Under the pieces are notes generated by a model. That model saw only the letters and a program-made list of their open reading frames with translations. It was not told the DNA's origin and did not search any database. From Candidatus Sysuiplasma acidicola (lineage in GTDB: Archaea > Thermoplasmatota > Thermoplasmata > Sysuiplasmatales > Sysuiplasmataceae): 64,000 nt of DNA. The stretch covers positions 76,020 through 140,019 of the forward strand of contig JAHEAA010000002.1 of assembly GCA_019721035.1 (NCBI GenBank). Direction: 5' to 3'. The number at the start of each line of letters is the position of its first letter. Position 1 is the first letter of the stretch. Made by a program: the position numbers and the translations under genes. Below, piece after piece: positions 827 to 60,718 of this stretch.

Positions 827-962
827 AAGTGCATCCCTTGTTCCACCAGATAGCGTGCTGGAGTTATAAATTTTTCTGCACTGTCCAACCAAAATGACTA
901 ATCCGTACGCCAAATGTCAGACACAGACAAGGTGACAGGAGCGGCTTGCCTCTGCAGCTGAA

Positions 963-4328: not shown

Positions 4329-4569
4329 TGCGTTCAACCCTTGGCACGCTAGGCACCGTCTGATTAAATGCCTTTGCTTTGACGTGAGCTCCGAAGCAGG
4401 TCCGACAGTGACTGTCTGAGCTGCCGGCAGGACAGGTGCAAACATTGCACGGTGCTTCGAGAAAGGAAGACTGAAGTCAAAGACAATGTCTCAATCGAGT
4501 TCACACCCTGTAAGTGCGCCGGAATAGTACAGAGACGCCTGAGGCATCAGAAATCATAAGGAAAAAATC

Positions 4570-5517: not shown

Positions 5518-5906
5518 TAAATCACACTCCGTTCAGGCAGTGTACGGTGGGAATGCGAACCGCCACATAGGGAACTGTTCTCCCGGAGACCAGCCTGCAC
5601 AAGGAATCGGAAGAACATTTCTGTATTTCCAGCCACCATATTCTGTCTTTTTTTTTCTCCGTCTTGTTCTACGTCATGTATCCTATTTAATAGTTTTGAA
5701 CTTATTAAGATACTTAAAGTTTACAAATATTACAAATATCCTCACTTCAAAACATATAAAGATACTAACAGACGGCAAAACATGAATGCATGCATCTGCC
5801 ATGACATCTCCCGCGATTGAGGCTGCTGACGTGCTGGGGGCGTCTAGCGTCGATGCGTGACAGGATGAACAAAATCTGCATTTCTGTGGATTCCGATCGC
5901 CTTTCA

Positions 5907-5915
5907 TTTAAATAA
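5907..5915 (+). promoter_or_regulatory. TATA-like box (TTTAAATAA) about 26 bp upstream of the thpR ATG; leaderless-type promoter
   Basis: An A/T octamer in an otherwise GC-neutral context at the canonical archaeal -26 distance from ATG 5939. Confidence 0.35.
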
Positions 5916-5938
5916 GCCTGCAGCGTGATCTGTCTGGC

Positions 5939-6490
5939 ATGCGCGAATTCATCTGCATCGATATCACAGACTTTTCCTGTTTTGAAGAGCTCTGCTCCAG
6001 CAGGCTCTTCAGGGACGCATGTATAAGGGCGGTGCAGGCAGCGGGACTTCACTTCACGCTGCATTTCCTCGGTGAGGTGAATGAAGAAATGAACACCGAA
6101 ATATCCGGGCTCTTGGAGGATGTTGTTTCCCGCCACAGGAGATTTTCGGTCGCATTCGGCGGAACTGGAGCGTTCCCGACCGTGCAGAGGCCCGAAGTCA
6201 TCTGGGCAGGCATTACGGCCGGAGAAGAACTGGGAATAATTCACCGTGAAATAGGGAAGGGTCTTGATGCGCTTGGCATACCGATTGAGCACAGAAGATA
6301 CAAGCCGCATGTCACGCTCGCACGTCTCAGATGCAGACCGGATGCCGCTTCCCTGGAAGACTTCTTCAGCACGTGGGGTGACAGGCGCATTGGAGAGCAG
6401 GAGATAAGGTCAATCAAACTGAAGCAGAGCGTACTTTCACAAACCGGCGCACTGCACCGGACGATTCATGATGCTTATCTCGGCCAGTAG
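5939..6490 (+). CDS. thpR: RNA 2',3'-cyclic phosphodiesterase / 2'-5' RNA ligase (ThpR/LigT, 2H phosphoesterase)
   Basis: Two H-x-T/S-x motifs (HFTLHFLG and HVTLARL), about 183 aa. Confidence 0.8.
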   Translation: MREFICIDITDFSCFEELCSSRLFRDACIRAVQAAGLHFTLHFLGEVNEEMNTEISGLLEDVVSRHRRFSVAFGGTGAFPTVQRPEVIWAGITAGEELGIIHREIGKGLDALGIPIEHRRYKPHVTLARLRCRPDAASLEDFFSTWGDRRIGEQEIRSIKLKQSVLSQTGALHRTIHDAYLGQ

Positions 6491-8430: not shown

Positions 8431-9021
8431 ATGATCACTGTCGGCCAGTTTGTTTACGCACTGTTCAGGCCATACGGTGAAAGCGGACTCATATTAGCGC
8501 TGTTCATAATTTTCTTTCTGGATGCTACCTTCTTCCCTACGCTTCCCGAACTGTTTACGGTTGTCATATTCCTAGCCATGCCTACGTCCTCCTTTGCGTT
8601 GCTCATGCTGGCTACGATCAGTGTCGCGGAATTCTCAGGCATAAACAGCCTGTATTACATCGTGAAGCACCATGATCTGCCGCTGTGGATCAAGAGCAAA
8701 ATGATCTCTTATTCAAGGTTCTTCATCGTGAAGGACGAGAAGATAATACTGTTGAACAGGGTTGCGCCTGTGATACCTTTTCTTGGAGCGTTCATAGCAA
8801 CATGCGAGTGGCGCTACGGCCGGAGCATAGCTTACAATTTCATAGGAGGCATCGCAAAGTATGCGCTGATAATACTACTCGCGTCTTTTCTTCTCAGCGT
8901 CTTTTCCAACCAGTTCGAAGCCGAAGTCATAACCATAGTTGCCGTCGGTTTGCTCATAGGCTTCAGCGCATATCTCTCGAACAGGGAAAAGAGAAGACTG
9001 GGCATGGGAGCTGAGAGCTGA
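8431..9021 (+). CDS. DedA/VTT-family-like integral membrane protein
   Basis: Multi-TM 196-aa protein sandwiched between two GT4 genes with 5 and 1 bp spacers. Its topology and size resemble DedA/SNARE-associated proteins. Confidence 0.55.
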   Translation: MITVGQFVYALFRPYGESGLILALFIIFFLDATFFPTLPELFTVVIFLAMPTSSFALLMLATISVAEFSGINSLYYIVKHHDLPLWIKSKMISYSRFFIVKDEKIILLNRVAPVIPFLGAFIATCEWRYGRSIAYNFIGGIAKYALIILLASFLLSVFSNQFEAEVITIVAVGLLIGFSAYLSNREKRRLGMGAES

Positions 9022-13547: not shown

Positions 13548-14708
13548 TTATCTCTTCCTTGATGAAAGCATCTCCTCGAGCCTCATTACCATTATATCCG
13601 CAGGGATGTCAAGGAGAGTAATCATGCCGGTCACACCGGAGGCGCCCCTCTTTTTCGACCTGAGATCTATGAGTCCGAGACCAACAAGCTCCTTCATGTG
13701 AGAATAGAACTGGGTGTGTCCCCTCGGCTTCTCACTGTACTCTTCACATACAATCCTGTAGATGTTTTCAACCTCGGTTGTTTCGGCGTACGCCCTTGTT
13801 CTCAGCAGGCGGGATGCAGAAAGCAGAACAAGCATCTGCTGTCTGCTCAGGCTGGACACTTTTTCTTCTGTCACAAACGAATAAGTTGATGCTTTTGCCG
13901 CGCGCACATCTTCGATCCCTATCTTCTGCGACATGCGTTCGTTTGCCAGCATGCCTGAGTTTTCCAGCAGCTCAAGTGCAAATCTCGCATCACCCCATTC
14001 GCCTGCGCTCTCTGCAATCATATCGAGCAGTTCGTCATCGACGGCACCGCTGACGAGCGCAAGCTCGGCTCTCGCCGACACAATATCGCGGAGCTGCTTC
14101 ACAGTATATTTGCCGAATTCTATCACGTTTGTTCTCTTGAAGGTGGACATGGCGGACATGTCCAGCAATTCGAAGAGGTGCCGTTGTGATATCAGTATAA
14201 GCGAAATCCTGTGCTTGAGCGTGTCGGACTCTTCCGGCAGCCTGCTCAGATAATATACAAGATCGCTTGCACCACTCCTGATCAGTGCATCCACTTCATC
14301 GAGCACGAAAACGCAGTGAGCCTGTTTCTTCTCTATGTGCCTGCGCAGAACCTTCCTCAATTCCTGTGAGGAGAATCCCCTGTCGGGAAAGTTGGGATCG
14401 AAATAATTTATCAGCTTGAGAAGTGTCGAAACTTCGCTGTTCCTCTGCCTGCAGTTAACGATTGTCCATTCTATCTTGCGCCCGGCTTTCGCCGTCCTGA
14501 GCGAAAGGTCTGAACAGAAACTCTTCGACGTTACAGTTTTGCCCGTGCCTATGCTGCCGACCAGCAGTACATTCTGGCTGTACCCTCCCTCCTGCACTGG
14601 TTCGAACATCACCTGGAGCCTGCGCATCTGCTCCTCCCTGTGAGGCAGCTTGTCGGGGATGTAATCGAATGAGAGCTTTCCAATGTCCTTGAAAACACCG
14701 CTAGGCAT
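13548..14708 (-). CDS. cdc6: Orc1/Cdc6 replication initiator (AAA+ plus winged helix)
   Basis: Walker A VLLVGSIGTGKT, Walker B VFVLDEVD, sensor motifs and a C-terminal wH domain. Confidence 0.9.
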   Translation of the reverse strand: MPSGVFKDIGKLSFDYIPDKLPHREEQMRRLQVMFEPVQEGGYSQNVLLVGSIGTGKTVTSKSFCSDLSLRTAKAGRKIEWTIVNCRQRNSEVSTLLKLINYFDPNFPDRGFSSQELRKVLRRHIEKKQAHCVFVLDEVDALIRSGASDLVYYLSRLPEESDTLKHRISLILISQRHLFELLDMSAMSTFKRTNVIEFGKYTVKQLRDIVSARAELALVSGAVDDELLDMIAESAGEWGDARFALELLENSGMLANERMSQKIGIEDVRAAKASTYSFVTEEKVSSLSRQQMLVLLSASRLLRTRAYAETTEVENIYRIVCEEYSEKPRGHTQFYSHMKELVGLGLIDLRSKKRGASGVTGMITLLDIPADIMVMRLEEMLSSRKR

Positions 14709-15257: not shown

Positions 15258-16875
15258 GGTAACTGGTCAGTCTTATGAAAAGAGCCTAATGAAAGTGTTG
15301 TTTTCATTGAATTGACCGAAAGTTTTTTCGGGTAGGATCGCCATACACCCCTCTGATGAACCGGATTCTGAACGAAGAATTTGCAGGCAGGATTGAATTC
15401 CTTCTCTCCGCCGATGAGAAGAAGTTGAGACTCTCGCAGGATGCGAGACAGGAACTTCTCAGGAAGTTCCGTGAAATGATCGAGATGATCAGGAAGCTGG
15501 AGAAGGAGAATCAGAGACTCAAGGAGGATCTGAAGAAGGTACGTGACGATTACGAAGAGTACAGGCACCGCCATCCAGAGACAGTCGGCGTGAAGAACGG
15601 CAAGGCATACGCCATACCTGAGAACGCAAAGGATGAAGGCGAAGGCGGGAACGGGACCGGCAGGAAGCCGGGCGCTCAGCCCGGCCACAAACCGTTCTTC
15701 AGGGAAAAGCCGGCACCGGACTGGACGGAGGAACTGCCTGTCGATGTGTGTCCCGACTGCGGAAGCGGCGAACTCGGCGCGCCTTCACTGCGTGCAAGGA
15801 CAGTGGAGGGCATCACACTGCCGGTGCACTTTGCAGTGGAGTATCTCATTCAGCGCAGATGGTGCGGCACATGCCGCACTTTTGTCGAGTCCGATGTGCC
15901 CGATGTACTGCCAGGGTCCAGGATTGACCTGAGGACGATGCTCGTCATGACATACATGCGCATCGCACTCAGGCTTCCGGTGCAGTCCGTCGCAGAGGCG
16001 ATGCAGCGACTCTTCTCATTCCATGTCTCAGAAGGCGAAATCATAGGCGTGGAGAGGAAACTCGCTGACGCGTTCACAGACTACTACGAACAGCTGCTCG
16101 GGGACATACGCAATGCGCCTGTCCGCCACATGGACGAAACCACATGGCGTGTCGACGGCGAGAACAGCTGGTTATGGGCATTCGTCACAAAGTGGACCGT
16201 TGTCTATGCAATAAGGAAGAGCAGGAGTCATGAGGTGCCGCTCAACATACTCGCAGAACATGTTGCCGGCATCAACATCACTGACCGTTACAGGGCATAC
16301 GACACGCTCGCCGCAAAGACGGGCGACCTGCAGTCATACTGCTGGTCGCATGTTCTCGGCGATGCGAAGGAACTGGCGGAGTTCTACGGCGAGGAGGGAA
16401 AGCGCATACACGACACGCTCCATTCCATACATGAAGATGCAGCGAAACTGAAACACATGGGAAATGAATATGATGTCGAGGCATTCGTATCGAGACTGAA
16501 AACACTCGACGTGCCGTACAAATCGGCACAGTGTGCCAGGTTCGTGAAGAACCTCATAGCAGACAGGGAAAAGCTGTTCCTGTTCGTCGAACTGGACATA
16601 GAGAGCACGAACAACCGTGCCGAGAGGGCAATAAGACCGGTTGTCATCTCGAGGAAGATATCTGGAGGCAGCCGCTCAGACAGCGGCGCCACCATGTTCG
16701 AGAAACTCGCGAGTATCGTACAGACGATGAAGCTCAGGGATCTCAATTTCCTCACAGACGGCATGAGAATACTGCGGACATCACACGGGTGAATGCCGCA
16801 ACATACATTCTGACGGCGGGCGGCCGAATAATATTCGGAAACTCATGTCACTGTACACAAGACTGAATAGTTACC
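15258..16875 (+). mobile_element. IS66-family insertion sequence (single-ORF, ISBst12-like group), about 1.6 kb
   Basis: An imperfect 20-bp terminal inverted repeat: GGTAACTGGTCAGTCTTATG at 15258..15277 versus the reverse complement of 16856..16875 (GGTAACTATTCAGTCTTGTG), 17 of 20 matching. It begins GTAA like IS66 TIRs and encloses the transposase ORF. No clean 8-bp TSD was found. Confidence 0.6.
15356..16792 (+). CDS. IS66-family transposase (TnpC-like)
   Basis: N-terminal leucine zipper/coiled coil, CPDCG...CGTC zinc finger, DDE region (HMDETTW, WLWAF, QSYCWSHVLGD), C-terminal TNNRAERAIRPVVISRKISGGSRS signature of IS66 TnpC. Confidence 0.9.
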   Translation: MNRILNEEFAGRIEFLLSADEKKLRLSQDARQELLRKFREMIEMIRKLEKENQRLKEDLKKVRDDYEEYRHRHPETVGVKNGKAYAIPENAKDEGEGGNGTGRKPGAQPGHKPFFREKPAPDWTEELPVDVCPDCGSGELGAPSLRARTVEGITLPVHFAVEYLIQRRWCGTCRTFVESDVPDVLPGSRIDLRTMLVMTYMRIALRLPVQSVAEAMQRLFSFHVSEGEIIGVERKLADAFTDYYEQLLGDIRNAPVRHMDETTWRVDGENSWLWAFVTKWTVVYAIRKSRSHEVPLNILAEHVAGINITDRYRAYDTLAAKTGDLQSYCWSHVLGDAKELAEFYGEEGKRIHDTLHSIHEDAAKLKHMGNEYDVEAFVSRLKTLDVPYKSAQCARFVKNLIADREKLFLFVELDIESTNNRAERAIRPVVISRKISGGSRSDSGATMFEKLASIVQTMKLRDLNFLTDGMRILRTSHG

Positions 16876-16900: not shown

Positions 16901-17309
16901 AGCCAAATTCGAAACCAGTTCAGATTTACAATCGATCATATTGGTGTGCCAGATGAATAAGGAAGAAGAGAAGAAGGGCGCAAAGGAGAAGAAAACAAAG
17001 CAGTCCAGAGCAGCAAAGGACGAGAAAGCAGTTGCGAAACATGCTTCGAAGGAGACGCCTGAAAGGAAGGAGAAGAAGAGCAGGAAGGAGGGGAAGGAGG
17101 TAGTAGCTGCCGAGGCTGTTGAAGCCGAAACGGAGAAAGTCACAAGATCGGAGAAGCCCAAGAAGAAGAGAACACGAAGCAGGAAAGGATCCGGTGCAGC
17201 AGCGAAGTCGGGCAAGCCAACTGTTCCTGCAGAACCCGGCGCTCCTGTTTCACAGCTTGCTCCGGAAATGCCGCCTGCCATGAAATTGAAATATGGCAGT
17301 GGCACGAGC

Positions 17310-17888
17310 ATGTATGCTCACATATCTTCCTATCGCAAGAACAGCTTCAACAAGGCACTCGGCAGGACTGAGTGGGAGAGGCTGATACGCTGGCGCAAAG
17401 AGGAAAATTACAGAACCATTGAACATCCGACAAGACTCGACAGGGCACGCTCCCTCGGCTATAAGGCCAAGCAGGGTGTTACGCTGGTCAGGGTCAGGGT
17501 ACGCAGAGGCGGACTCAGAAAGAGAAGGATAGCCAAGGGGCGCAGGGCGAAGAGAAAGGGTATACTGCGCATCACCATGAAGAAGAATACACAGAGAATG
17601 GCTGAGGAGCGTGTAGGAAAGAGATACCCTAACATGGAAGTTCTCAATTCCTACCCCGTAGGTCAGGACGGCATGCACCGTTGGTTCGAGGTCATACTCG
17701 TCGACCCATACAGCCCGTCTGTTCAGAGCGACAGGCATCTCAACTGGCTTTCAAACCAGACACATTCCAGCAGGGCCTTCCGCGGCCTGACTTCCGCCGG
17801 CAAGAAAGGAAGGGGACTGCGCTGGCGGGGCAAGGGCGTCGAGAAGGTCAGACCTTCCGTAAGGGCCAACGACAGGAAGGGTAAGTAA
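17310..17888 (+). CDS. rpl15e: 50S ribosomal protein L15e. Core protein only; an in-frame Lys/Glu-rich 123-codon ORF extends upstream to 16941.
   Basis: MYAHISSYRKNSFNKALGRTEWERLIRWRKEENYRT...RGLTSAGKKGRGLRWRGKG is canonical L15e (193 aa). The supplied ORF (16941..17888, TTG start) adds a KEEEKKGAKEKKTKQ... extension. A second TATA-like element (AAATTGAAATAT, 17283..17294) lies 26 bp before the 17310 ATG. Confidence 0.85.
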   Translation: MYAHISSYRKNSFNKALGRTEWERLIRWRKEENYRTIEHPTRLDRARSLGYKAKQGVTLVRVRVRRGGLRKRRIAKGRRAKRKGILRITMKKNTQRMAEERVGKRYPNMEVLNSYPVGQDGMHRWFEVILVDPYSPSVQSDRHLNWLSNQTHSSRAFRGLTSAGKKGRGLRWRGKGVEKVRPSVRANDRKGK

Positions 17889-18746
17889 TCAGGATATTCT
17901 GGCGAGCAGAGCAAGGCGCTCGCCTTCGGTCATTCCCGCCGCCGGATAAAAGAATGCGAAATTGGACTTTACCATCGCCGCTGCGTCCGCGATCCTGTCC
18001 ACACTCAACGCAATGCCTGAGCATCGCGCCTGGGCTGCGATCGAAAGCAGTTGTTCCAAACCATTTACAGAGACAATGCTTATTTTTGCATTCCATTTCC
18101 TGATAGGCTCGATGTCATCATCCGTATTTCTGCCTATGACAACGCTGCATCCTCTCCTCATCATCATCCAGGGAATAATGATGTCATCACGCTTTTCCAC
18201 CAGACAGGCGACACTGCCCTGCGTACCCATCGGCAGGCCACCGGGTCCCTGTTCGGAATTCCCGTAGATGTACGCCGCCTTCTCTCTTGCCTCGACGAAC
18301 ACTTCCACGTCCGGATGATCGAGCGAAACACGCAGTTCCATGTCCTCATGGTCTCCGATGATGCGCGATCCTGCTTCTCTGGCGAGTTCCATGCTCGTGT
18401 ACTTCTGTCCGCCTGATCTGCGCGCTCTAACCGCGAATGCACAGCCTCTGTAAAGCAATCCTGACGCATAAGCCGAGACAGCGCTGACCAGTTCATTCAT
18501 ACCCACTGGAGCCTCCACCACTTCACTGAAGGAGGCTATGCCAAAGGTGCGCGAGATGATCTCTCTGCTCCTCTCGGCATTGCCGGATAGAACGTATATT
18601 CTGCCTCTGTCTGAAGAGACGATACATTCCTGCCCGGAGCCTAGGAATGCGTTCTCTATGTTTTCGATGAGTGTGTTGATGAATCTTCTTCGAACCCTTT
18701 CGCTCTTGAGACCTATCTCGGCATATCTGAGCAGGAATAGTGTCAT
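17889..18746 (-). CDS. ThiI-like protein: N-terminal ferredoxin-like/THUMP tRNA-binding domain plus a truncated, degenerate PP-loop domain
   Basis: The YAEIGLKSERVRRRF start is the typical ThiI N-terminus and a THUMP domain follows. GLPMGTQGSVACLVEKRDDIIIPWMMMRRG aligns to the ThiI G-x-x-G-K-vlvLlSGGiDSPVAaylmmkRG region, but SGGIDS is replaced by EKRDDI. The protein ends about 115 aa after this. Confidence 0.75.
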   Translation of the reverse strand: MTLFLLRYAEIGLKSERVRRRFINTLIENIENAFLGSGQECIVSSDRGRIYVLSGNAERSREIISRTFGIASFSEVVEAPVGMNELVSAVSAYASGLLYRGCAFAVRARRSGGQKYTSMELAREAGSRIIGDHEDMELRVSLDHPDVEVFVEAREKAAYIYGNSEQGPGGLPMGTQGSVACLVEKRDDIIIPWMMMRRGCSVVIGRNTDDDIEPIRKWNAKISIVSVNGLEQLLSIAAQARCSGIALSVDRIADAAAMVKSNFAFFYPAAGMTEGERLALLARIS

Positions 18747-20412: not shown

Positions 20413-21636
20413 TCAGAGTCTTGATAATATCTTATTCACTTCGTCCTCAAGAGTCGCGGACCCCGTCCCCCCGTCGCCCGAGCCAAGCTCCGTCAATTCC
20501 GCACGGAGCTCCTCGACACTCTTCTCAAGCTCCTGTCTGATCTGAACAAATATCTCGAGATTTTTGCCGGCCTCCTGTCTAACCGATTCCTTTTCCTTCC
20601 GGATGCTGTCAGTGCCTTCAAATGTGATAGTCAATTCCCTGAGTCTCGTGATTTCATCTTCAAGCGCCTGCTTTCTTTCTCTGGCCTTAAGGACCTTGTT
20701 GTAATCAGTAAGTGCTTCGGAATTATTGTGTATGTAGTTAAGCGCACTCCTGATCAGATCGTTCCCGATTAAACTCAGGGGGTCATCATCCGCCAGTTCA
20801 GCCGTGAATTTGTCCAGTCGTGAAATTGCGACATCCACATCCCACTCAGTCAGCTCTCTGCTTCCAGACTTGACAACACTGCTGGTCATTTCACGTATTC
20901 TCGGCATCACTCTGACAACCGGATCTAGCAACGAGCCTGATGAATGAAGAAAGCTCTTCAGCTTCTCCATGGCCTCCGTCTCCTCTACGATTGCTGAGCG
21001 CAGACTCGATTTAGCCTCGTCCATTGCACGCAGGAGCTCCCGTTTCTTTTCCTCCTGTCTGGCGCCGGCGACCGTTTCAATGTCAAGAAACCCTTCGGGC
21101 TTTGGAATCTTTTGCCTGTATGCCTGCAGCTCATCTGTAAGATCAGCGATCTTCTTTCTGAGATAGAGAATATTCTCGATTTTTCCGTCAATTTCCTCAA
21201 GCCTTTCAAACATTCGCTGCTCTTTTTTGGAAAAACTCGAATAGTTGAAAATCTCCCTGTCCAGTTCGGCGACCGTTTCCTCAATCCGTTCCAATGCAAC
21301 CTGAAGTTGCTTTTTTCTGGCAGGTTCGCAATCCAATTTTAACAGAGGCGGCTTGAGTTTTTCCGATATTTTTGCCGGTTTCATTCTGAGAGCCTCCCTG
21401 AGATCCGGGAATCCGCCATGCCTCAGGAAGAGTTTCATTTGCTTTACGTCCTTGGGGGAGTAATCGCTGAGGAGCAGTTTGTAGAACTGCTGGAGTTGCA
21501 TCACAGCCCTTTTTTGTAAATCTCTTATCGTCTTGTCCGAGCTTTCACTCTTTCTGGCCTCCTCCAGCTTGGTGGTGATGCTCTTCCGGGTCTTCTCCAA
21601 CTTGTCGAAATCATAGGGGATGTCGCTCTCCTGCAT
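20413..21636 (-). CDS. Coiled-coil protein, function unknown (407 aa)
   Basis: Long ORF with heptad-like K/E/L/R-rich composition throughout and no enzymatic motif. Convergent with the MFS gene. Confidence 0.5.
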   Translation of the reverse strand: MQESDIPYDFDKLEKTRKSITTKLEEARKSESSDKTIRDLQKRAVMQLQQFYKLLLSDYSPKDVKQMKLFLRHGGFPDLREALRMKPAKISEKLKPPLLKLDCEPARKKQLQVALERIEETVAELDREIFNYSSFSKKEQRMFERLEEIDGKIENILYLRKKIADLTDELQAYRQKIPKPEGFLDIETVAGARQEEKKRELLRAMDEAKSSLRSAIVEETEAMEKLKSFLHSSGSLLDPVVRVMPRIREMTSSVVKSGSRELTEWDVDVAISRLDKFTAELADDDPLSLIGNDLIRSALNYIHNNSEALTDYNKVLKARERKQALEDEITRLRELTITFEGTDSIRKEKESVRQEAGKNLEIFVQIRQELEKSVEELRAELTELGSGDGGTGSATLEDEVNKILSRL

Positions 21637-21789: not shown

Positions 21790-21874
21790 GCAGGGATAAC
21801 CAAGCTTGGCCAAAGGTGCCAGATTCAGGGTCTGGTTGCGCAGGCATTCGGGGGTTCAAATCCTCCTCCCTGCA
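21790..21874 (+). tRNA. tRNA-Leu (anticodon CAG), type II with long variable arm
   Basis: Hand-folded cloverleaf: acceptor GCAGGGA/TCCCTGC, 3-bp D stem ACC/GGT, anticodon stem CCAGA/TCTGG with loop TTCAGGG, long variable arm, T arm GGGGG-TTCAAAT-CCTCC, discriminator A. CCA is not encoded. Confidence 0.8.
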
Positions 21875-21949
21875 CCGTTATTGGTGCTCAAAGTTCAAGT
21901 CATGAAAACGGCGAAGAGTACAGGGACCGGTGCAAAACCAGTGTAACTA

Positions 21950-22702
21950 ATGAGATATGCTGATATGTTCACTATAGAATTCAGGGAATATATTCATGAA
22001 AGAATCCTGGAATTTGCAAAGGCAGACAAACGAATAAGTCAAGCGGCTCTGGTTGGTTCTACCTCAGAAACGCCTGATCGCTGGTCAGATTTGGACATCA
22101 CGTTTGGCGTTTCCTCAAAATCCAACATTGAAGATGTACTGCGGGATTGGACATCGCATTTTGAATTTGTATTCAACGGGGTTTCACTATTCGACATTAC
22201 ATACAAAAGTTCAGTGTATATGGTGTTTATTCTTCCCGGTGGCCTTCAAGTTGATATCTCTTTCACTCCAGAATCCGACTTCGGTCCCCATGGACCCAGG
22301 TTCAGACTGTTATATGGTAATGTGAATAAAAGAATCCTTCACGAGGAGCCAGATCCAAAGCGTATGTTCGGGATGGCTGTACATCATTTACTAAGAACGC
22401 GTGTTTGTCTCGAACGCAGGAAAATTTGGCAGGCGGAATACTGGCTAAGCTCAGCCCGAAACGAACTCTTGTCCATTATCTGCATTAACCACAAATTACC
22501 TTACTCGAATGGAAAAGGATATGATAAACTGCCAAAAGAAGTGGTGGATTCTTTCACTCCAGCCTTTCCAAAATCACTAAACGGGATTGAATTGTGCATG
22601 GCCTTAAAGATTCTGATAGAAAACATCCCTAACAACAAGGAATTTTCACTGTTCTTGACTCAAAGGTTGGAAAACATATTGAAAGAGTTGATATCATCGT
22701 GA
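21950..22702 (+). CDS. Nucleotidyltransferase-domain protein, ANT(6)/Lnu-like (aminoglycoside/lincosamide nucleotidyltransferase fold)
   Basis: LVGSTSETPDRWSDLDITFGV matches the GS-x(n)-[DE]-x-[DE] minimal NTase motif of the KNTase/ANT(6)/Lnu families, followed by an all-helical C-terminal domain. The gene is clearly lower in GC than its neighbours. Confidence 0.6.
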   Translation: MRYADMFTIEFREYIHERILEFAKADKRISQAALVGSTSETPDRWSDLDITFGVSSKSNIEDVLRDWTSHFEFVFNGVSLFDITYKSSVYMVFILPGGLQVDISFTPESDFGPHGPRFRLLYGNVNKRILHEEPDPKRMFGMAVHHLLRTRVCLERRKIWQAEYWLSSARNELLSIICINHKLPYSNGKGYDKLPKEVVDSFTPAFPKSLNGIELCMALKILIENIPNNKEFSLFLTQRLENILKELISS

Positions 22703-22801
22703 GCGGTCACTCTTACACTTTTCCAACTTGAGCAGATATGCTAATAACCGAAATGAAATTTTGATTTGTTAAAAGATGCGAAGATCGGCCGCAAGTTGTA
22801 G

Positions 22802-22886
22802 TGCGGAGGGCCGGATTTGAACCGGCGAACCCCTGCGAGACAAGACCCTCAATCTTGCGCCGTTGACCATGCTTGGCTACCTCCGC
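22802..22886 (-). tRNA. tRNA-Leu (anticodon GAG), type II
   Basis: Reverse strand: acceptor GCGGAGG/CCTCCGC, D stem GCC/GGC, anticodon stem CAAGA/TCTTG with loop TTGAGGG, long variable arm, T arm GCCGG-TTCAAAT-CCGGC, discriminator A. Confidence 0.8.
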
Positions 22887-27360: not shown

Positions 27361-28329
27361 ATGCGCGTCGACAGATATCTTGTTGGCATTCAGCCAAGAA
27401 CAGAAGAGCTTATAGCAGGCACAAGAGACAGGGACAGGAACAGAATCACAGAGGAGGAGCTGGAAGAACTCAGAACGGCTGCTGCAATGAGAGATTTGTC
27501 GATACAGATGCAGGAGCAGTACACGTTTCTTTCCGACCCTATGTTCCACTGGCAGGACCTGATCAGGCCTTTTGTAGATCTGCTTGAGGGACAGGACAGT
27601 GTGCCTCAGCTGACGAGGTGGTTCGACAACAATACCTTTTACAGACGACCTGTTATCGATACATATCCCAGCATTTCCCACAGAAAATTGTTGAAGTACT
27701 ACTTTCCCAGACTTTGGGAATCGGGCAAAAGGGCTAAAGTTATCGTTCCCTCACCTTACACGCTATATGCTTCTTCAGAAGACAGTTATTTCCCTGACAG
27801 AAGGTCGGGCGTGCTTTCGTTCGCGCAGGAGATGGAGAGGGTGGCACTATTCCTGGAAGAGAAGGGTGCCCGGCAGATAGAGTTCGTCGAACCCTTCCTA
27901 TTCTTTGGCCATCCCGAAGCGGAAGACATCGAACTCGCGGCGGATGCGTTTAATCTTTCCACTCAGAAGTTGAAGTGCGAAGTGATGATACACTTTCCCT
28001 TTGGCAAACTCGAGGGGCACTTCAAACAGGTGATGGAATTCAATGCTACGGTCATCGGAATAGATTTTTTCTCGACAGCATTATCATCGGTGACCAATTT
28101 CGACAGGTCGAAGGGAGTGGCCATCGGCTGTCTTGATGCTAGAAACAGCAGGCTCGAAAGCGTTGAGTGGGTTGTCAACTTTGCACGCTCTGTCGCAGAG
28201 AGAATAGGCGGGGTGGAACATGTGGCGCTCATTCCCAGTGCGGACATGGAATTTCTGCCACGGTCTATTGCTGAGGAGAAGATGAAGATAATTGGAGAAG
28301 CTGCAAGGAGGCTTGATAATGATGGATAA
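27361..28329 (+). CDS. MetE N-terminal-domain-like protein (cobalamin-independent methionine synthase family paralog lacking the Zn site)
   Basis: Weak but consistent similarity to the MetE/UROD (beta/alpha)8 fold. There are no His/Cys/Glu/Cys zinc ligands. It is translationally coupled (ATGATGGATAA overlap) to the catalytic metE that follows. Confidence 0.55.
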   Translation: MRVDRYLVGIQPRTEELIAGTRDRDRNRITEEELEELRTAAAMRDLSIQMQEQYTFLSDPMFHWQDLIRPFVDLLEGQDSVPQLTRWFDNNTFYRRPVIDTYPSISHRKLLKYYFPRLWESGKRAKVIVPSPYTLYASSEDSYFPDRRSGVLSFAQEMERVALFLEEKGARQIEFVEPFLFFGHPEAEDIELAADAFNLSTQKLKCEVMIHFPFGKLEGHFKQVMEFNATVIGIDFFSTALSSVTNFDRSKGVAIGCLDARNSRLESVEWVVNFARSVAERIGGVEHVALIPSADMEFLPRSIAEEKMKIIGEAARRLDNDG

Positions 28330-29470
28330 GTTGTTTCCTACACAGGAAATTGGAAGCATTGCAAAGCCCAATTGGAGGGTTCTAGGTTATCGTGGCGCTC
28401 CGATACCGGATCATGATTTCAACGAAGCGAAGTACTGGGGAAGGAAACTGAAAATAGAGGGGCATGAACAGCTGCTTGAATTGCTGAAGTCTGACGACTC
28501 CGCAGAGACTCGTGAGGCCATCAGGGAGTGGTCTGCAATATATGCCATCAGACTGCAGGAGGTTTCTGGTCTTGACATCGTTTTTGATGGGGAACAGTGG
28601 AGGACTGAAATGTATGAGGCGCTGGTCAGGGATATCGAGGGCTTCAAGTTTGTCGGACATGTACGTTCGTGGGATAACAAGTACTACAGGAAGGCTGCAG
28701 TTGTCGACGAGATAAAGTGGAAAAAGCCGATTTATCTTAATGAATTCCTCTTCACTAAGGAACACACCGACAGGGTAGTTAAGATTCCGTTCACCGGACC
28801 GTATACAGTAACGGATTGGTCGTTCAACGAGTTCTATCAGAAGAGGTTGGAGAGCCTTCATATCGATCCGCTCGAGCTGAAAAAGAAAGCGTATTCTGAC
28901 TTGCTCTTTGAAGTTGCGAGAAAACTGATACGGCCCGAAATAGAGTCGCTCGTGTCTGCTGGTGCCCGCTGGATACAGATTGATGAGCCAGCTTTAAGCA
29001 CCCAGCCCGGAAAGGACCAGGTGTTAAATTTTGTCCAGGCGATAAATGATGCGACGAAGGGTTTCGATTGCAAGTTTTCGCTTCATGTCTGCTATTCCAC
29101 TGACTACACGACGATGTTCCCCGAACTCCTCGAGGCGCGTACACTGAGTCAATATGCCCTTGAGTTTGCAAACAAGGACAGTATGAAAAACGGGGGCACT
29201 AAACGCACAGGTTATGACGTTGTTAAATTGCTCGGAGAGTATGGCGCCGCCAAGCAGGTGGGTCTCGGCGTGATAGATGTCCACGATGACCGAATAGAAT
29301 CGCCAACTCTAGTCAGAGATAGAATCTTGCACGCAGCGAGTCTGATAGGTGACCCTGCGCTCATCTATGTTAATCCTGACTGTGGAATTAGAACCAGAAC
29401 CTGGAAGAACACCTACAATAAATTTGTGAATATGGTAAAGGGTGCTGAGTTGGCCAGAAAACAGACATGA
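28319..29470 (+). CDS. metE: 5-methyltetrahydropteroyltriglutamate--homocysteine methyltransferase (cobalamin-independent methionine synthase, archaeal short form)
   Basis: IQIDEPAL, HVCYS and PDCGIRTR provide the Zn-binding His/Cys/Glu/Cys set of MetE; 383 aa. The start was taken at MMDKLF (28319); the supplied ORF starts at 28292. Confidence 0.85.
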   Translation: MMDKLFPTQEIGSIAKPNWRVLGYRGAPIPDHDFNEAKYWGRKLKIEGHEQLLELLKSDDSAETREAIREWSAIYAIRLQEVSGLDIVFDGEQWRTEMYEALVRDIEGFKFVGHVRSWDNKYYRKAAVVDEIKWKKPIYLNEFLFTKEHTDRVVKIPFTGPYTVTDWSFNEFYQKRLESLHIDPLELKKKAYSDLLFEVARKLIRPEIESLVSAGARWIQIDEPALSTQPGKDQVLNFVQAINDATKGFDCKFSLHVCYSTDYTTMFPELLEARTLSQYALEFANKDSMKNGGTKRTGYDVVKLLGEYGAAKQVGLGVIDVHDDRIESPTLVRDRILHAASLIGDPALIYVNPDCGIRTRTWKNTYNKFVNMVKGAELARKQT

Positions 29471-29765: not shown

Positions 29766-30668
29766 ATGAGCGGTCACCCGGCAGGTCCACCAATGGCTGA
29801 ATGCGGCGTTCCGCAGATGCTCGGCAGACAGGTAATAAAGCCACCGGATCTCGTTCTGGTGGTCGGGGCAGAAGGCATTATTGGCGGGACACTCTTCTAC
29901 GAGCTTCTGAAATCGGAATTCAACGTAAGATGCCTCATTCGCATGGAGGATGAGGCTCGTATCGACAGGAAGCCAGGTGTGGAATTTTTCTACTGCGACC
30001 CCTGGGGCGGTGACATACCGGAAAAGGCATTTGATGGCGTGAAGTATGTTGTCAATGCCGTATCTCCGCTGAACACTGGAAGCATGCCATCGGACAATGT
30101 GGAAGCATTCGAAAGGCTCTCCAACATACTCATTACGAGATGTGTTGCAAAGCGCCTTGAACGGTACGTGGGCATCAGTTCTGTCAATCTGTCAGAGAGG
30201 GAGAACGACAGTTGGGCATTCGCAAACAGGCACATTGAGATTTCTGCAATTCGAAGCGGCGCTCCCTATACGATTCTCAGATCAGGGTTGATGCTTGATG
30301 CACTCAATGAAGAAGTACTCAGACGCATCGGCTCAGCCGGACTTGGCTCACTTATCGGCAGAAAGGGTGCCGAACGACTGTGCGTTACACCGATGAAGAA
30401 GCTTGCCGAAACAGTGGCAAGAGTGCTGAAAACCGATCAGTCACTGAACAGAATATATGAAGTTGTGCTTGGCAGTCAGATGAGCAGAAAGGAGATTGGA
30501 AAGACGGTGGCTCACAGCCGTCGGGGGAGCCAACATAATCCATGGGAGATTGACATTCAGGCGGAACTTTCTGCTGGCAGATATGGTGGTGAAATAGCCG
30601 ATTTGTCTGAGCTGGAAATCATGCTTCCAGACAAGGGTGCGCTCTTGGCACCTCAGGGCGCGGCTTAG
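29766..30668 (+). CDS. NAD(P)-binding domain protein (NmrA-like / atypical SDR)
   Basis: VVGAEGIIGGTL Rossmann GxxGxxG motif near the N-terminus; no catalytic YxxxK is evident. Confidence 0.6.
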   Translation: MSGHPAGPPMAECGVPQMLGRQVIKPPDLVLVVGAEGIIGGTLFYELLKSEFNVRCLIRMEDEARIDRKPGVEFFYCDPWGGDIPEKAFDGVKYVVNAVSPLNTGSMPSDNVEAFERLSNILITRCVAKRLERYVGISSVNLSERENDSWAFANRHIEISAIRSGAPYTILRSGLMLDALNEEVLRRIGSAGLGSLIGRKGAERLCVTPMKKLAETVARVLKTDQSLNRIYEVVLGSQMSRKEIGKTVAHSRRGSQHNPWEIDIQAELSAGRYGGEIADLSELEIMLPDKGALLAPQGAA

Positions 30669-31318
30669 CCATGTATTGTCATTGTCGAAAGCACCTGGAT
30701 CAGTTCAGGAATGACCACGTCGGTTAGCAGCAATCTGTTAAAATTAAGGCTCCAGCTCCTCTTTGACGCAGAAGAAATCATGCCGTTGTTCTTCAGAGCT
30801 GTGTCTGCCTCCTTCAGCCGCGCTACGTCGAAAGCACTGTCGTGAAGCGTGAGCGTCAAGCGTGCTTCATCCATTGGCTTCAGATCGCGCACCTGCAGCA
30901 GAACTTTTTCGGTTTCTTCGAGCAACGTACGCTGCTGCAGGATTGTCCCGGTAATCGAAGCACCCCTGGTATCGGATTGCGACTTACATGAAATCCTTAC
31001 CCTTGGATCGCGGTAGAACGACTTTTCTTCTTCAAACACCGGCATCAGATTCTCTATTCTGATTTCCTGTCCGCGTGGCTTCCGCTCAACCTCAATCGTG
31101 AGCTCCTTCATTATTCTGTGTCCAATCTTCCTCAGGCGGCTGTCCCTGCTGCCAGCAGGGCTGAAGTAAGCGCCGAGCACCATGTCTCCCTGTATTCTAT
31201 ATATTGGTTCGAATTTCCCGGAGTAGTAGAGTGCATCATATATCTCCAAAGGTACATCACCTGTCCTCGATGCTTTTATACTGATGGCGAGTTCTGATGA
31301 CACTCTCTGCTTTGACAT
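30665..31318 (-). CDS. Hypothetical protein (217 aa)
   Basis: Well-formed ORF with no recognisable motif. It is divergent from the PurM-like gene. Confidence 0.45.
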   Translation of the reverse strand: MSKQRVSSELAISIKASRTGDVPLEIYDALYYSGKFEPIYRIQGDMVLGAYFSPAGSRDSRLRKIGHRIMKELTIEVERKPRGQEIRIENLMPVFEEEKSFYRDPRVRISCKSQSDTRGASITGTILQQRTLLEETEKVLLQVRDLKPMDEARLTLTLHDSAFDVARLKEADTALKNNGMISSASKRSWSLNFNRLLLTDVVIPELIQVLSTMTIHG

Positions 31319-33957: not shown

Positions 33958-35061
33958 TTGGCACCGATGGTGATTCAACTGGCATCAATTGACGTGGTGG
34001 TTGTAAGCGAGAGCGGGTCTGACAACCAGGAAGACCTGAAAGCGCTTTCTTCCGTTCCAGGACTCAATGTATCGGCTTCGACACCACTCATGCTTATGCT
34101 GTCGCTGCATTCGATAAATTTCGGCACTGTCGCCGTGCTCGAGCTACCTTTTCTGCAGGAGAGTGAGGAGGAGTTTCTGGAAATACTGCTGAAGGGACCT
34201 TCTCCTGTTCCTGCTGTGCTTGTTACAGACGAACCCGTGAAATACCTGCGGCACCTTGGCAGGGGAACAGTCAAGCTAGTTCTGAGAGAGCCGGGATACC
34301 TGAATTCACTCCCTGATTCCATAAAAGATGCGAGCGATGGAGCGAGAGTGGTTTTTGAACGGGATGCGCTTGAGAAAAGACTCCAGGAATACGCGCAATA
34401 TCTGGAGATCATAAACAAGATCATGGAGCATGACATAGGTGATCTAAACCAGGCGATACTGACCTTTTCAGAACTGCTCGGTAGGACTGAGGGGAAGGTC
34501 AGCAAGCATCTCATCGACAACATCATCGCGCAATCAAAGACTGTGGGAAATCTGATTAATGCGTTTTCCAATCTGGCTCGTCTTGCCAAGGGCAATGTTC
34601 AGGAGCTTGCATTCAGAGTTCATCCTCTGAAGCAGGAAATAGACGATGGCGTAGAAAAATTTGCTTCGGAGTCTGGCAGAGAATACAATGTGGCGATAAA
34701 TTGCAGCAAGGATGAATCTGTTCTCGGCGACGCTCAACTGTCGAACCTTTTCGAATATTCACTCGCGCTTCTCGCCAGCATACAGAAAGATACGAATAGT
34801 TTTGATATAGACGTTCGTGAGGAAACGGCACTTCAGAAGTCGGCGGTGATAACAATCTCACCAAGGGGCGTGCCCAAATCGAGCATTCCGCGTGTTATGT
34901 CTCATGTGGACGACATAGATACGCTGCTGCGAGGCAACGTCGACCTCATGGCTGTCACAATACTCACACGGCGATATGGTGGAAATGCCTCAATCGGCAC
35001 ACTCGAAGTCGGGGGAAGGAATGTAACGTTTCTGACCATCATGCTTCCCCTGAGTGCCTGA
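33958..35061 (+). CDS. Histidine-kinase-like protein with N-terminal pseudo-receiver domain (HisKA-like H-box plus degenerate HATPase_c)
   Basis: The H-box-like IMEHDIGDLNQAILTFSELL resembles sHDLrnPLnaIlgfsElL. The C-terminus RRYGGNASIGTLEVGGRNVTFLTIMLP resembles the G2/G3 end of HATPase_c, but the G1 box is unclear. The N-terminal CheY-like fold has SE in place of the acidic DD pair. Confidence 0.5.
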   Translation: MAPMVIQLASIDVVVVSESGSDNQEDLKALSSVPGLNVSASTPLMLMLSLHSINFGTVAVLELPFLQESEEEFLEILLKGPSPVPAVLVTDEPVKYLRHLGRGTVKLVLREPGYLNSLPDSIKDASDGARVVFERDALEKRLQEYAQYLEIINKIMEHDIGDLNQAILTFSELLGRTEGKVSKHLIDNIIAQSKTVGNLINAFSNLARLAKGNVQELAFRVHPLKQEIDDGVEKFASESGREYNVAINCSKDESVLGDAQLSNLFEYSLALLASIQKDTNSFDIDVREETALQKSAVITISPRGVPKSSIPRVMSHVDDIDTLLRGNVDLMAVTILTRRYGGNASIGTLEVGGRNVTFLTIMLPLSA

Positions 35062-47724: not shown

Positions 47725-47739
47725 TGCCGGACGATACGT

Positions 47740-60708: not shown

Positions 60709-60718
60709 AGTCTCAGCC

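Follow-up and report, generated by a model that had tools for sequence, protein, structure and literature searches.

In crystals of T. maritima ThiI with RNA, the acceptor stem and the ACCA end are held by the ferredoxin-like and THUMP domains of one subunit, whereas U8 lies at the PP-loop site of its partner, and the authors of that work state that U8 can be positioned in this way by a ThiI dimer only (PMC4041423). These structures also show that Lys17 is directed into the active site of the other subunit, that the catalytic domain makes few RNA contacts and that the CCA ruler is essential, and loss of the CCA end recognised by THUMP lowers formation of 4-thiouridine at this position (s4U8) to below 0.1% (PMC4041423).

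PH1313 of Pyrococcus horikoshii (1VBK) is without residues that are conserved in ThiI, its PP-loop domain is smaller, and it is a dimer in its crystal structure and has an unconfirmed activity (PMC9957541), and it exists in Pyrococcus alongside an active full-length ThiI (PMC9957541; PMC9825150). A structure of the PH1313 type has been available for two decades, yet these proteins have no assigned function. The previously described ThiI domains that lack THUMP always occur with DUF814, and these ThiI+DUF814 proteins have been proposed to provide an alternative route to s4U (PMC4075521). In the literature searched, we found no description of a ThiI catalytic domain that lacks both THUMP and DUF814, and nothing on a split or heterodimeric ThiI.

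Here we analyse two genes for ThiI-related proteins in a 64,000-nucleotide stretch of the genome of Candidatus Sysuiplasma acidicola (the window). One of them, KIS30_01390 (17889..18746, minus strand, with an ATG start), encodes a 285-residue ThiI-like protein of the PH1313 family, a putative pseudo-enzyme that is referred to below as P1. The other, KIS30_01315 (1008..1709, plus strand), encodes P2, a 233-residue ThiI catalytic (PP-loop) protein without THUMP. An earlier note on this DNA, which gave no strand for P1, had placed the two genes about 17 kb apart; the gap between them is 16.2 kb. P1-type genes are currently labelled ‘thiamine biosynthesis protein ThiI’ in IMG, and P2-type genes ‘hypothetical protein’ at NCBI.

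A ThiI-like protein with a degenerate PP-loop domain

P1 opens with a ferredoxin-like domain (residues 1–75; 18522..18746, minus strand) that carries the invariant loop G12-L13-K14-S15 and is matched by the Pfam family ThiI_fer (PF22025, residues 4–74, E=4e-15), and continues with a THUMP domain (residues 76–165; 18252..18521, minus strand), in which PF02926 matches residues 101–161 (E=1e-9). A linker, QGPGGLPMGTQG (residues 166–177; 18216..18251, minus strand), leads to a third domain that comprises residues 178–285 (17889..18215 with the stop codon, minus strand) and that alignment to ThiI identifies as a truncated and presumably inactive PP-loop fold. When P1 is aligned by HMMER with B. anthracis ThiI (2C5S), E184-K-R-D-D-I189 stands exactly opposite S-G-G-I-D-S, and a translation check places this EKRDDI, in the position of the PP-loop motif, at 18180..18197 (minus strand). 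The third domain aligns with the first part of the PP-loop domain of ThiI and with the RPLxGxDKxEI segment of that domain, and it stops after the RPLxG-like part, so the segment with the catalytic cysteine (the equivalent of E. coli Cys344) is missing. In all, 108 residues follow the linker, compared to ~200 in ThiI, and the TGExxGQxxSQT loop, which forms part of the ThiI dimer interface, is missing or degenerate.

These features are reflected in the profile searches, in which all domain matches of P1 and P2 are far beyond chance. PF02568, the catalytic domain of ThiI, has no Pfam match in P1, and residues 5–204 align with positions 2–201 of the 373 in the NCBIfam ThiI profile (TIGR00342), with a score of 124.7 bits that lies under the curated cut-off of 264.5. 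As a candidate member of ThiI, P1 thus has the ferredoxin-like and THUMP domains and lacks SGGxDS, the catalytic cysteine and a score at the cut-off. The AlphaFold2 model (pLDDT 93.8) contains a small domain of alternating strands and helices at residues 178–285. The earlier note had described a ThiI N-terminus and THUMP followed by a shortened domain with EKRDDI for SGGIDS; all of this is borne out, and the PP-loop homology on which the description depends is seen with TIGR00342, 2C5S, the PH1313 profile and Foldseek. Taken together, the alignments predict P1 to be a ThiI-like protein without catalytic activity.

Assignment to another THUMP family was rejected, since matches to Trm14 or Trm11 cover the THUMP domain alone, with E=6e-9 or weaker. 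The view that P1 is a pseudogene or a chance open reading frame is ruled out by hundreds of relatives, by the confident model and by comparison with the closest relative (dN=0.16, dS saturated), values which point to strong purifying selection.

The P1 family is found in at least 574 species of GTDB, and clustering at 50% identity divides it into more than 150 groups; it is very common in Thermoplasmata and is present in other archaea. None of ~70 family open reading frames from 80 GTDB loci contains SGGxDS, and the position of EKRDDI is variable (27% pairwise identity). Mean pairwise identity is 34–48% across the domains, the lower value being that of the PP-loop-fold domain, and reaches 75% in the linker, where conservation within the family is highest. 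Across 31 members, L13 and K14 are invariant, as are F104, R109, R110, G112, S118, G126, V140, L142 and P145 of the THUMP domain. K14 aligns with Lys17 of T. maritima ThiI, and the invariant THUMP residues sit in the strand, helix and loop equivalent to the elements of that protein which bind the 3′-ACCA end.

PH1313 belongs to the same family: its residues 1–303 match positions 1–282 of the P1-family profile from end to end (E=1.4e-52), and 1VBK is the top Foldseek match of P1 (TM 0.83/0.78). The suggestion that P1 is a pseudo-enzyme paralog fits these matches and the size and age of the family. Claims that this architecture is unusual are weaker than they had seemed, because a P1-type structure (1VBK) has been public since 2005.

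A ThiI catalytic domain without THUMP

In P2, PF02568 is matched over its full profile (residues 32–226, E=4e-64, 216 bits). The ATP-binding PP-loop motif SGGIDSP (1083..1103, plus strand) is invariant with respect to full-length ThiI, and a D-C-C segment (1557..1565, plus strand), in which D199, C200 and C201 are invariant, contains the conserved ThiI catalytic cysteine. In the family alignment, SGGxDS, the dimer-interface loop TGxSxGQVxSQT, RPLxGxDKxEI and the catalytic cysteine are all invariant. P2 shares 40–41% identity with 2C5S and 4KR6 by Foldseek (41% and an rmsd of 1.7 Å for T. maritima ThiI, 4KR6) and about 50% with the closest ThiI in the databases. TIGR00342 aligns over its positions 171–368 and scores 224.1 bits against the cut-off of 264.5, a shortfall for which the absent N-terminal half accounts in full. 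NF006222 (PRK08349), a family of 198-residue stand-alone PP-loop proteins, scores 152 bits against a cut-off of 251, which makes P2 a relative of this family and not a member.

Pfam, the upstream reading frames and the structural model reveal neither a ferredoxin-like or THUMP domain nor any other RNA-binding domain in P2. The cysteines of the protein are at positions 38, 72, 200, 201 and 234 (numbered for a 248-residue open reading frame); none forms a CXXC motif, which puts P2 outside the [4Fe-4S] TtuI class (CXXC plus a further cysteine). A rhodanese domain is likewise not found by Pfam, and the protein ends 20–25 residues past the PP-loop domain.

The start of P2 is probably the ATG at 1008, given the NCBI annotation and the starts of homologues (at the equivalent of M16); a longer open reading frame from a TTG at 963 is possible (963..1709, 248 residues). 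In the AlphaFold2 model of this longer form, residues 33–248 are confident and residues 1–29 are predicted to be disordered. Sequence and six-frame translation define a divergent intergenic region (830..1007) between P2 and ftsZ, which is on the opposite strand, starts near 830 and lies 130–180 bp upstream of P2, so there is no coding room for a THUMP domain at this position. Therefore, the possibility that an alternative start extends P2 into THUMP can be set aside, the frame being closed upstream, and the earlier view of a PP-loop-only protein with SGGIDSP and DCC and without THUMP is upheld by Pfam and translation. The intergenic region contains a candidate TATA box, TTATAAATTTTT, at 865..876, and the ftsZ-P2 arrangement is kept in relatives. 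A short-chain dehydrogenase gene begins 4 bp downstream of P2 and is kept in one relative and missing from another; there is no gene for a sulfur donor near P2.

The P2 family consists of about 22 clusters from Sysuiplasmatales and relatives. Its members have diverged to 57–65% identity, with all of the ThiI-specific motifs invariant. P2 homologues open with M-x-x-F-I-E-V, which is what is left of the final strand of THUMP and shows that an N-terminal part of P2 was lost.

Ancestry of P1 and P2

One way to obtain two such genes, and the literal sense of the split of which the earlier note spoke, would be that one ancestral thiI broke in two, its N-terminal part becoming P1 and its C-terminal part P2, and that the two genes later drifted apart. 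The THUMP-strand remnant at the start of P2 homologues would be expected from such an event. In addition, identities to full-length ThiI of the DPANN type (35–38% for the N-terminal half of P1 and 46–52% for P2) are about those expected for one gene. This comparison is sensitive to the choice of reference: against 92 ThiI proteins picked for similarity to P2, the N-terminal half of P1 shows 29% identity and 52 bits where 37% and 107 bits are expected, a selection artefact, and against ThiI proteins picked by their match to a P1(N)+P2 chimera, the values are 35–38% and 100–112 bits.

Other evidence makes a literal fission very improbable. P1 is more than an N-terminal fragment, because it keeps an entire, degenerate third domain and is an end-to-end orthologue of PH1313, and its family is much older than the narrow P2 family. 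Moreover, P1 carries WLMMKRGC and the linker GPGGLPxGTQG, as do archaeal ThiI proteins of the CXXC type, and the P1 family grades into these by way of dead forms of full size in which CXXC is retained. In P2 the motif is WLTMRSG and CXXC is absent; its closest full-length relatives, bacterial and DPANN ThiI proteins of the non-CXXC type, share 50–52% identity with it, compared to 39% for a CXXC-type catalytic domain. On the strength of the motifs, the graded CXXC series and these identities, we conclude that P1 and P2 come from different ThiI lineages and not from gene fission, the P1 family being derived from archaeal ThiI of the Fe-S (CXXC) type.

Co-occurrence and gene neighbourhoods

Homologues of P1 and P2 occur together in all three genomes checked (S. 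acidicola, S. superficiale and GCA_046706185.1), and in GCA_046706185.1 they are on different contigs. Among the 80 best GTDB loci, no P1 homologue has a ThiI catalytic gene within 10 kb. These loci have rpl15e, PolB, YchF, KsgA and Pus10 as conserved neighbours of P1 and contain no operon partner for it, just sporadic unrelated PP-loop genes. An exhaustive search also found no fusion of the P1 domains to other domains, the longer matches being full-size dead or active ThiI proteins. The proximity of P1 and P2 in the window looks accidental. An IS66 transposase adjoins rpl15e in the window, so a rearrangement may have contributed to the distance of 16 kb.

A metagenome contig, L129, encodes a THUMP-less active ThiI of the CXXC type, a ThiF-like E1 and a protein with THUMP and a dead PP-loop domain, all on one strand within 4.6 kb. 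The dead protein has NGDISS where SGGIDS is expected. This single contig holds a second, independent pair of the P1/P2 kind.

A possible two-protein 4-thiouridine synthase

The in-trans mechanism of the ThiI dimer offers a ready explanation for the complementarity of P1 and P2, and this mechanism, the co-occurrence in three of three genomes and the clustered pair on L129 make the idea of a two-subunit enzyme plausible. We propose, with a little less than even confidence, that P1 and P2 could form a heterodimeric, two-protein tRNA 4-thiouridine (s4U8) synthase. In this enzyme, P1 would contribute the module that binds the tRNA acceptor stem and 3′-CCA end (ferredoxin-like and THUMP domains), which it retains along with the conserved linker, and its reduced PP-loop-fold domain would now serve as scaffold and dimerisation surface only. 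P1 would hold the tRNA and put U8 into the active site of P2, where ATP would be used for adenylation of this base and the conserved cysteine of P2 for sulfur transfer. Within a heterodimer of a dead and an active subunit, the THUMP domain of the active partner would feed the dead site only, so it would be dispensable and could have been lost.

We count in favour of the heterodimer that P1 retains K14, the residues of the CCA groove and the linker as its best-conserved segment, is under strong purifying selection and has nothing for catalysis, and that P2 has all of the catalytic motifs and no RNA-binding domain. In addition, among the best 120 matches to a P1(N)+P2 fusion, about a quarter of which are named, there is no full-length ThiI named as Thermoplasmata. 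We count against it the lack of linkage in all 80 loci and the separate contigs of GCA_046706185.1, the Pyrococcus case, in which PH1313 is present next to a full-length ThiI that is active, and the degenerate dimer-interface loop of P1. The family sizes (at least 574 species for P1 and ~22 clusters for P2) further indicate that the function of P1 proteins cannot depend on a P2 partner.

It is also quite conceivable, if doubtful, that the two proteins have independent functions, P1 performing whatever task belongs to the PH1313 family and P2 working without it. P1 could then act in non-catalytic tRNA binding, chaperoning or regulation, or as an adaptor like Tan1/THUMPD1, which is a precedent for such a THUMP protein; P2, either as a homodimer or together with some other RNA-binding protein, would be a thiouridine synthase with lower specificity or a different target. 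The far greater breadth of the P1 family and the unlinked loci fit this reading, and so does the presence of both dead ThiI-like proteins and active full-length ThiI in Aenigmatarchaeota, as in Pyrococcus, where the activity of PH1313 itself is unconfirmed (PMC9957541; PMC9825150). However, a lone ThiI catalytic domain should bind tRNA poorly, because this domain makes few RNA contacts and the CCA ruler is essential (PMC4041423); the ferredoxin-like/THUMP module and linker of P1 are specifically of the ThiI type, the lysine directed at an active site is invariant even though the site of P1 itself is dead, and genes for both kinds of protein are clustered on L129. An improbable further reading is that P2 is not an s4U8 enzyme at all and that P1 is unrelated to it, P2 being either a ThiI-derived enzyme of adenylation or sulfur transfer that acts on a different substrate, or a remnant in decay. 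Its score under the TIGR00342 cut-off, its lack of rhodanese, CXXC and THUMP and the dehydrogenase gene 4 bp downstream would all agree with this, but the low score goes with the absent N-terminal half while the catalytic half fits the full PF02568 profile, the structural similarity to T. maritima ThiI is close, and the dehydrogenase gene is missing from another relative. The ThiI motifs that stay invariant in a family diverged to 57–65% identity also argue for selection on ThiI chemistry.

If P1 and P2 do act as a heterodimer, a homodimeric RNA-modifying enzyme would have become a heterodimer of pseudo-enzyme and enzyme, and the way in which thiI is scored in the annotation of archaeal genomes would change. 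The presence of P1 and P2 in one genome, with complementary losses, also turns the role of PH1313 into a testable hypothesis. A broader version, which we consider rather unlikely, is that, in archaea at large, PH1313-type proteins present the tRNA within heterodimeric 4-thiouridine synthases and that their active partners shed THUMP at least twice, so that complementary degeneration would have led to an obligate pair of pseudo-enzyme and enzyme. This loss would have occurred independently in a non-CXXC partner (P2 of Sysuiplasmatales) and in a CXXC-type partner (in the L129 organism), the latter clustered with a ThiF-like E1. If the heterodimer does not exist, the window contains one more member of an orphan family and an oddly truncated ThiI.

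Comparison with known systems

PH1313 has the same three-domain layout as P1, with a short PP-loop-fold domain that lacks SGGxDS, and both proteins have a PVFYPL motif at the C-terminus. P1 is 22 residues shorter, identity in the structural alignment is ~23%, and an invariant cysteine of the P1 family (RGC) is a valine in PH1313. Pyrococcus has a full-length active ThiI, whereas the sole ThiI catalytic domain seen here is without THUMP. Archaeal [4Fe-4S] ThiI/TtuI proteins (CXXC plus C, as in M. maripaludis and P. furiosus) have the GPGGLPxGTQG linker and WLMMKRGC in common with the P1 family; P1 differs from them in having no PP-loop motif, no CXXC and no third cysteine.

P2 has the same PP-loop, dimer-interface loop motif and catalytic cysteine as rhodanese-free ThiI/TtuI (2C5S, 4KR6), and neither has CXXC, while the C-terminal rhodanese domain with its persulfide cysteine that characterises ThiI of the E. 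coli and Thermoplasma type is not in P2. Like P2, ThiI+DUF814 proteins have an active ThiI PP-loop domain without THUMP; these proteins have a fused DUF814 (NFACT-R) RNA-binding domain and an association with TusA, whereas Pfam finds no extra domain in P2.

Tan1/THUMPD1 with Kre33/NAT10 is a known case in which a THUMP protein without catalytic activity of its own brings tRNA to another protein, the enzyme. The chemistry in that case is acetylation, and the adaptor, unlike P1, does not contain a dead copy of its partner’s catalytic domain. In canonical rhodanese-free ThiI, with which the N-terminal 200 residues of P1 are colinear (2C5S/4KR6 type), recognition and catalysis reside in one polypeptide; here they are found in two genes 16 kb apart, each of which lacks what the other keeps.

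Properties of P1, a ThiI-like protein with a dead PP-loop domain

The gene at 17889..18746 on the reverse strand (locus tag KIS30_01390) encodes a ThiI-like protein of 285 residues, P1. Pfam assigns residues 4-74 to the ThiI ferredoxin-like domain and residues 101-161 to THUMP and yields no match to the ThiI catalytic domain, and residues 5-204 are colinear with positions 2-201 of 373 in the NCBI ThiI model TIGR00342, at a score (124.7 bits) well under the cut-off of 264.5. In alignments to solved ThiI structures, the position of SGGIDS is occupied by E184-KRDD-I189. Only 108 residues follow the linker; this third domain keeps the helix that follows the PP-loop (WMMMRRGC) and an FYPxxGM segment that is the counterpart of ThiI RPLxGxDK, and in the alignment it lacks the adenine-binding HFHS, the TGExxGQxxSQT loop and the end that bears the cysteine. 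The AlphaFold2 model has a pLDDT of 93.8. Pfam, TIGR00342 and the structure alignments thus confirm the earlier note, which described a ThiI N-terminus and THUMP domain followed by a truncated domain with EKRDDI in place of SGGIDS. Assignment of P1 to another THUMP enzyme, the alternative raised there, was rejected, as matches to Trm14 and Trm11 are weak and confined to THUMP.

P1 is a further member of an already known orphan family. A profile of 31 P1 homologs matches the Pyrococcus horikoshii ThiI-like protein PH1313 (PDB 1VBK) along its entire length (E=1.4e-52), whereas it matches true ThiI over the first 200 residues only, and 1VBK is the best structural match of the P1 model (TM 0.83), ahead of the ThiI structures. 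When GTDB was scanned with one genome for each species, at least 574 relatives were found, and the top 80 all come from Thermoplasmata or Methanomassiliicoccales; family ORFs extracted from ~70 of these 80 loci encode proteins mostly of 280-300 residues, none of which contains SGGxDS. In an exhaustive profile search, >150 clusters at 50% identity match the family profile end to end. Comparison with its closest relative (dN 0.16, dS saturated) indicates that the P1 gene is under purifying selection, and mean pairwise identity in the family is highest in the linker (75%) and falls from 48% in the ferredoxin-like domain through 42% in THUMP to 34% in the dead domain.

Properties of P2, a ThiI catalytic protein without THUMP

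P2, encoded at 963..1709 on the forward strand (KIS30_01315), matches the full Pfam ThiI catalytic profile (E=4e-64). Its SGGIDSP is encoded at 1083..1103 (+) and its DCC at 1557..1565 (+), so Pfam and translation uphold the proposal of a PP-loop domain alone, with both motifs intact and no THUMP. The start is probably the ATG at 1008, giving a product of 233 aa, since the NCBI annotation agrees and all close homologs begin at the equivalent Met. The reading frame is closed upstream, where the neighbor is ftsZ on the opposite strand with its start near 830, and the ftsZ-P2 gap of 130-180 bp holds a TTATAAATTTTT box; given the closed frame and the short gap to the divergent ftsZ, an extension of P2 into a THUMP domain is ruled out. 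By the numbering of the 248-aa ORF, the AlphaFold2 model is confident over residues 33-248 and disordered over 1-29, and the folded part superimposes on the Thermotoga maritima ThiI catalytic domain with an rmsd of 1.7 Å at 41% identity.

Distinct ancestries of P1 and P2

Among the hits of the exhaustive profile search were also proteins 333-442 residues long whose N-terminal halves resemble P1 and which, aligned with the P1 type, form a graded series from active to shrunken dead forms. It begins with the apparently active P0511 from Promethearchaeota (SGGIDSP, CXXC, TGENLGQVASQT and a C-terminal Cys), passes through full-size proteins with a spoiled PP-loop (SGNADC, RGDCGS, DGSVEA and similar) that often keep CXXC, continues with 357-residue forms and ends with the 285-residue P1 type. 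Among the full-size spoiled forms is one from Aenigmatarchaeota, and Thermoplasmata have a related form of 373 aa. Active archaeal CXXC-type ThiI in metagenomes carries the same hallmarks as P1, GPGGLPxGTQG and WLMMKRGC. From this series and these common hallmarks it follows that P1 is the reduced final stage of a dead branch within archaeal Fe-S (CXXC) type ThiI. The proteins P0464, P0473, P0503, P0504, P0518, P0446 and P0457 belong to the series, whose hosts are Aenigmatarchaeota, Thermoplasmata and other archaea; no description of it was found in the literature searched.

Close relatives of P2 fall into only ~22 clusters (224-248 residues; 57-100% identity by alignment), with named members from Ca. 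Sysuiplasma acidicola, S. superficiale, S. jiujiangense and a few other Thermoplasmatota metagenome-assembled genomes (MAGs), and the next-best matches of P2 are full-length ThiI of bacteria (47-55% identity) and of DPANN archaea. P2 lacks CXXC, has WLTMRSG where P1 has WMMMRRGC, and shares 50-52% identity with non-CXXC catalytic domains as against 39% with a CXXC-type one. In alignment with full-length ThiI, the N-terminus of the P2 family (M-x-x-F-I-E-V) falls on the final THUMP strand and the GGLPxG linker is lost; P2 was therefore derived from a full-length ThiI through N-terminal deletion.

An origin of P1 and P2 by breakage of a single gene was rejected, since P1 traces to a CXXC-type and P2 to a non-CXXC ThiI; a half-by-half identity comparison of their origins has an outcome that depends on the choice of reference set. 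The "split ThiI" of the earlier note therefore fails as an evolutionary statement, with distinct ThiI lineages behind the two proteins.

Co-occurrence and gene neighborhoods

Database entries identical to P1 and P2 come from Ca. Sysuiplasma acidicola, whose records are MAGs and which belongs to the order Ca. Sysuiplasmatales of the Thermoplasmata. Homologs of both P1 and P2 were present in all three genomes tested. The two protein accessions are 15 apart in S. acidicola; the homologs P0132 and P0013 lie on separate contigs of GCA_046706185.1; and the S. superficiale pair (KIY12_00815 and KIY12_07515/20) also occurs in a second MAG. A ThiI catalytic gene was found within 10 kb of a P1 homolog at none of the 80 GTDB loci, and neither a sulfur-carrier nor a desulfurase gene was found near P1 or P2.

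The conserved neighbors of P1 are rpl15e (convergent), PolB, YchF, KsgA, Pus10, a TauE-like membrane protein and an MFS transporter. In the window, an IS66-family transposase (15356..16792, +) lies between orc1/cdc6 (13548..14708) and rpl15e, at the place where PolB and YchF follow rpl15e in related genomes. This suggests a local rearrangement, which may have contributed to the 16-kb spacing of P1 and P2. The rpl15e product (16941..17888, +) has a Lys/Glu-rich N-terminal extension of ~120 residues, with the Pfam domain starting at residue 123; the extension is probably real, as it is weakly conserved in relatives (44% identity in L001, 33% in L089).

The site of P2 between ftsZ and thrS is kept in relatives. 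Threonyl-tRNA synthetase is a single 652-aa protein in the window (2487..4445) and is encoded by two genes in the related genome GCA_046706185.1 (L084:11521-13362), one for the editing domain (146 aa) and one for the catalytic/anticodon part (437 aa).

A metagenome scan with full-size dead ThiI-like forms as queries matched mostly active CXXC-type ThiI; six matches were truly dead, three of them at loci with long flanks. One of these, L129 (JGI contig Ga0315277_10003219), carries three genes, all on the same strand and spanning no more than 4.6 kb (L129:6569-11167): a THUMP-less CXXC-type ThiI (218 residues; SGGIDSP, CXXC, C-terminal Cys), a ThiF-family E1-like enzyme (358 aa) and a protein of 397 residues with ferredoxin-like, THUMP and dead PP-loop domains (NGDISS for SGGIDS, CXXC lost). 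The P1/P2 type of pairing thus recurs independently, here clustered and with a different ThiI subtype, although as one contig L129 is no more than suggestive.

Other genes in the window

A stand-alone PP-loop ATPase at 45798..46637 (-) scores 276.7 bits with TIGR00268, for which the cut-off is 150, and is clearly a sacrificial sulfur transferase of the LarE type; its gene adjoins a class II ribonucleotide reductase and a heme/siroheme precursor cluster (46744..50112: hemB, hemC, tetrapyrrole methylase, hemD). A QueA-like protein of the S-adenosylmethionine:tRNA ribosyltransferase-isomerase family is encoded in this archaeon at 59689..60741 (-), scoring 168 bits, under the equivalog cut-off of 324; queuosine is a bacterial and eukaryotic modification. 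Two adjacent, overlapping genes at 27361..29470 (+), of 322 and 392 aa, both resemble the catalytic domain of cobalamin-independent methionine synthase (MetE). No Pfam match at E<=1e-5 was obtained for the six sizeable ORFs 20413..21636 (-), 21950..22702 (+), 33958..35061 (+), 30665..31318 (-), 8431..9021 (+) and 5765..6310 (-), and the first two also gave no NCBIfam match. ORF 21950..22702 is flanked by tRNA-Leu CAG (21790..21876) and tRNA-Leu GAG (22801..22886), both with U8 followed by A9.

A possible P1:P2 heterodimer

In crystals of the T. maritima ThiI-RNA dimer, the acceptor stem and ACCA end are bound by the ferredoxin-like and THUMP domains of one subunit, and U8 sits in the active site of its partner, a positioning that the authors concluded is possible for the dimer only; the CCA end serves as a ruler, with activity <0.1% without it, and a ferredoxin-like-domain loop (Ser12-Arg21) reaches the partner active site, with Lys17 pointing in (PMC4041423). 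K14 of P1, which aligns with Lys17, is invariant, and the elements of the CCA groove (a strand, a helix and a loop) are filled by invariant residues, with several polar contact residues differing. Since ThiI works across the dimer and P1 keeps these features, a P1:P2 heterodimer would contain one complete composite site, with P1 holding the tRNA and P2 performing the chemistry. THUMP of the active subunit would then serve the dead site only and so be dispensable, which fits its loss in P2. We infer the P1:P2 interaction, its activity, its sulfur source and this step from composite site to THUMP loss. The earlier idea of a tRNA-recognition and a catalytic subunit is a reasonable one and mechanistically well grounded, and that P1 presents tRNA to P2 in a heterodimer is the reading we favor, if tentatively; the degenerate ThiI dimer-interface loop of P1 counts against it.

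The main rival, which we consider possible while leaning against it, is that the role of the P1 family is unrelated to heterodimerization with ThiI. Members of the P1 family occur far more widely than those of the P2 family, and in Pyrococcus, where genomes hold several ThiI homologs (PMC9957541), an active full-length ThiI, shown for the P. furiosus enzyme (PMC9825150), stands beside the dead protein; dead ThiI-like proteins and active ThiI also both occur within the phylum Aenigmatarchaeota. The general role of the family therefore cannot simply be to supply what a split enzyme is missing. In the more novel reading, P1-family proteins may pair with whichever active ThiI is present.

Comparison with known ThiI-like proteins

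No description of a split or heterodimeric ThiI was found in the literature searched, and ThiI domains have been thought to be always fused to THUMP, the exception being a DUF814 fusion (Burroughs and Aravind, PMC4075521). PH1313 is termed a "ThiI-like protein" in a 2023 review, without conserved ThiI residues and with a smaller PP-loop domain, and was solved as a dimer whose activity is not confirmed (PMC9957541).
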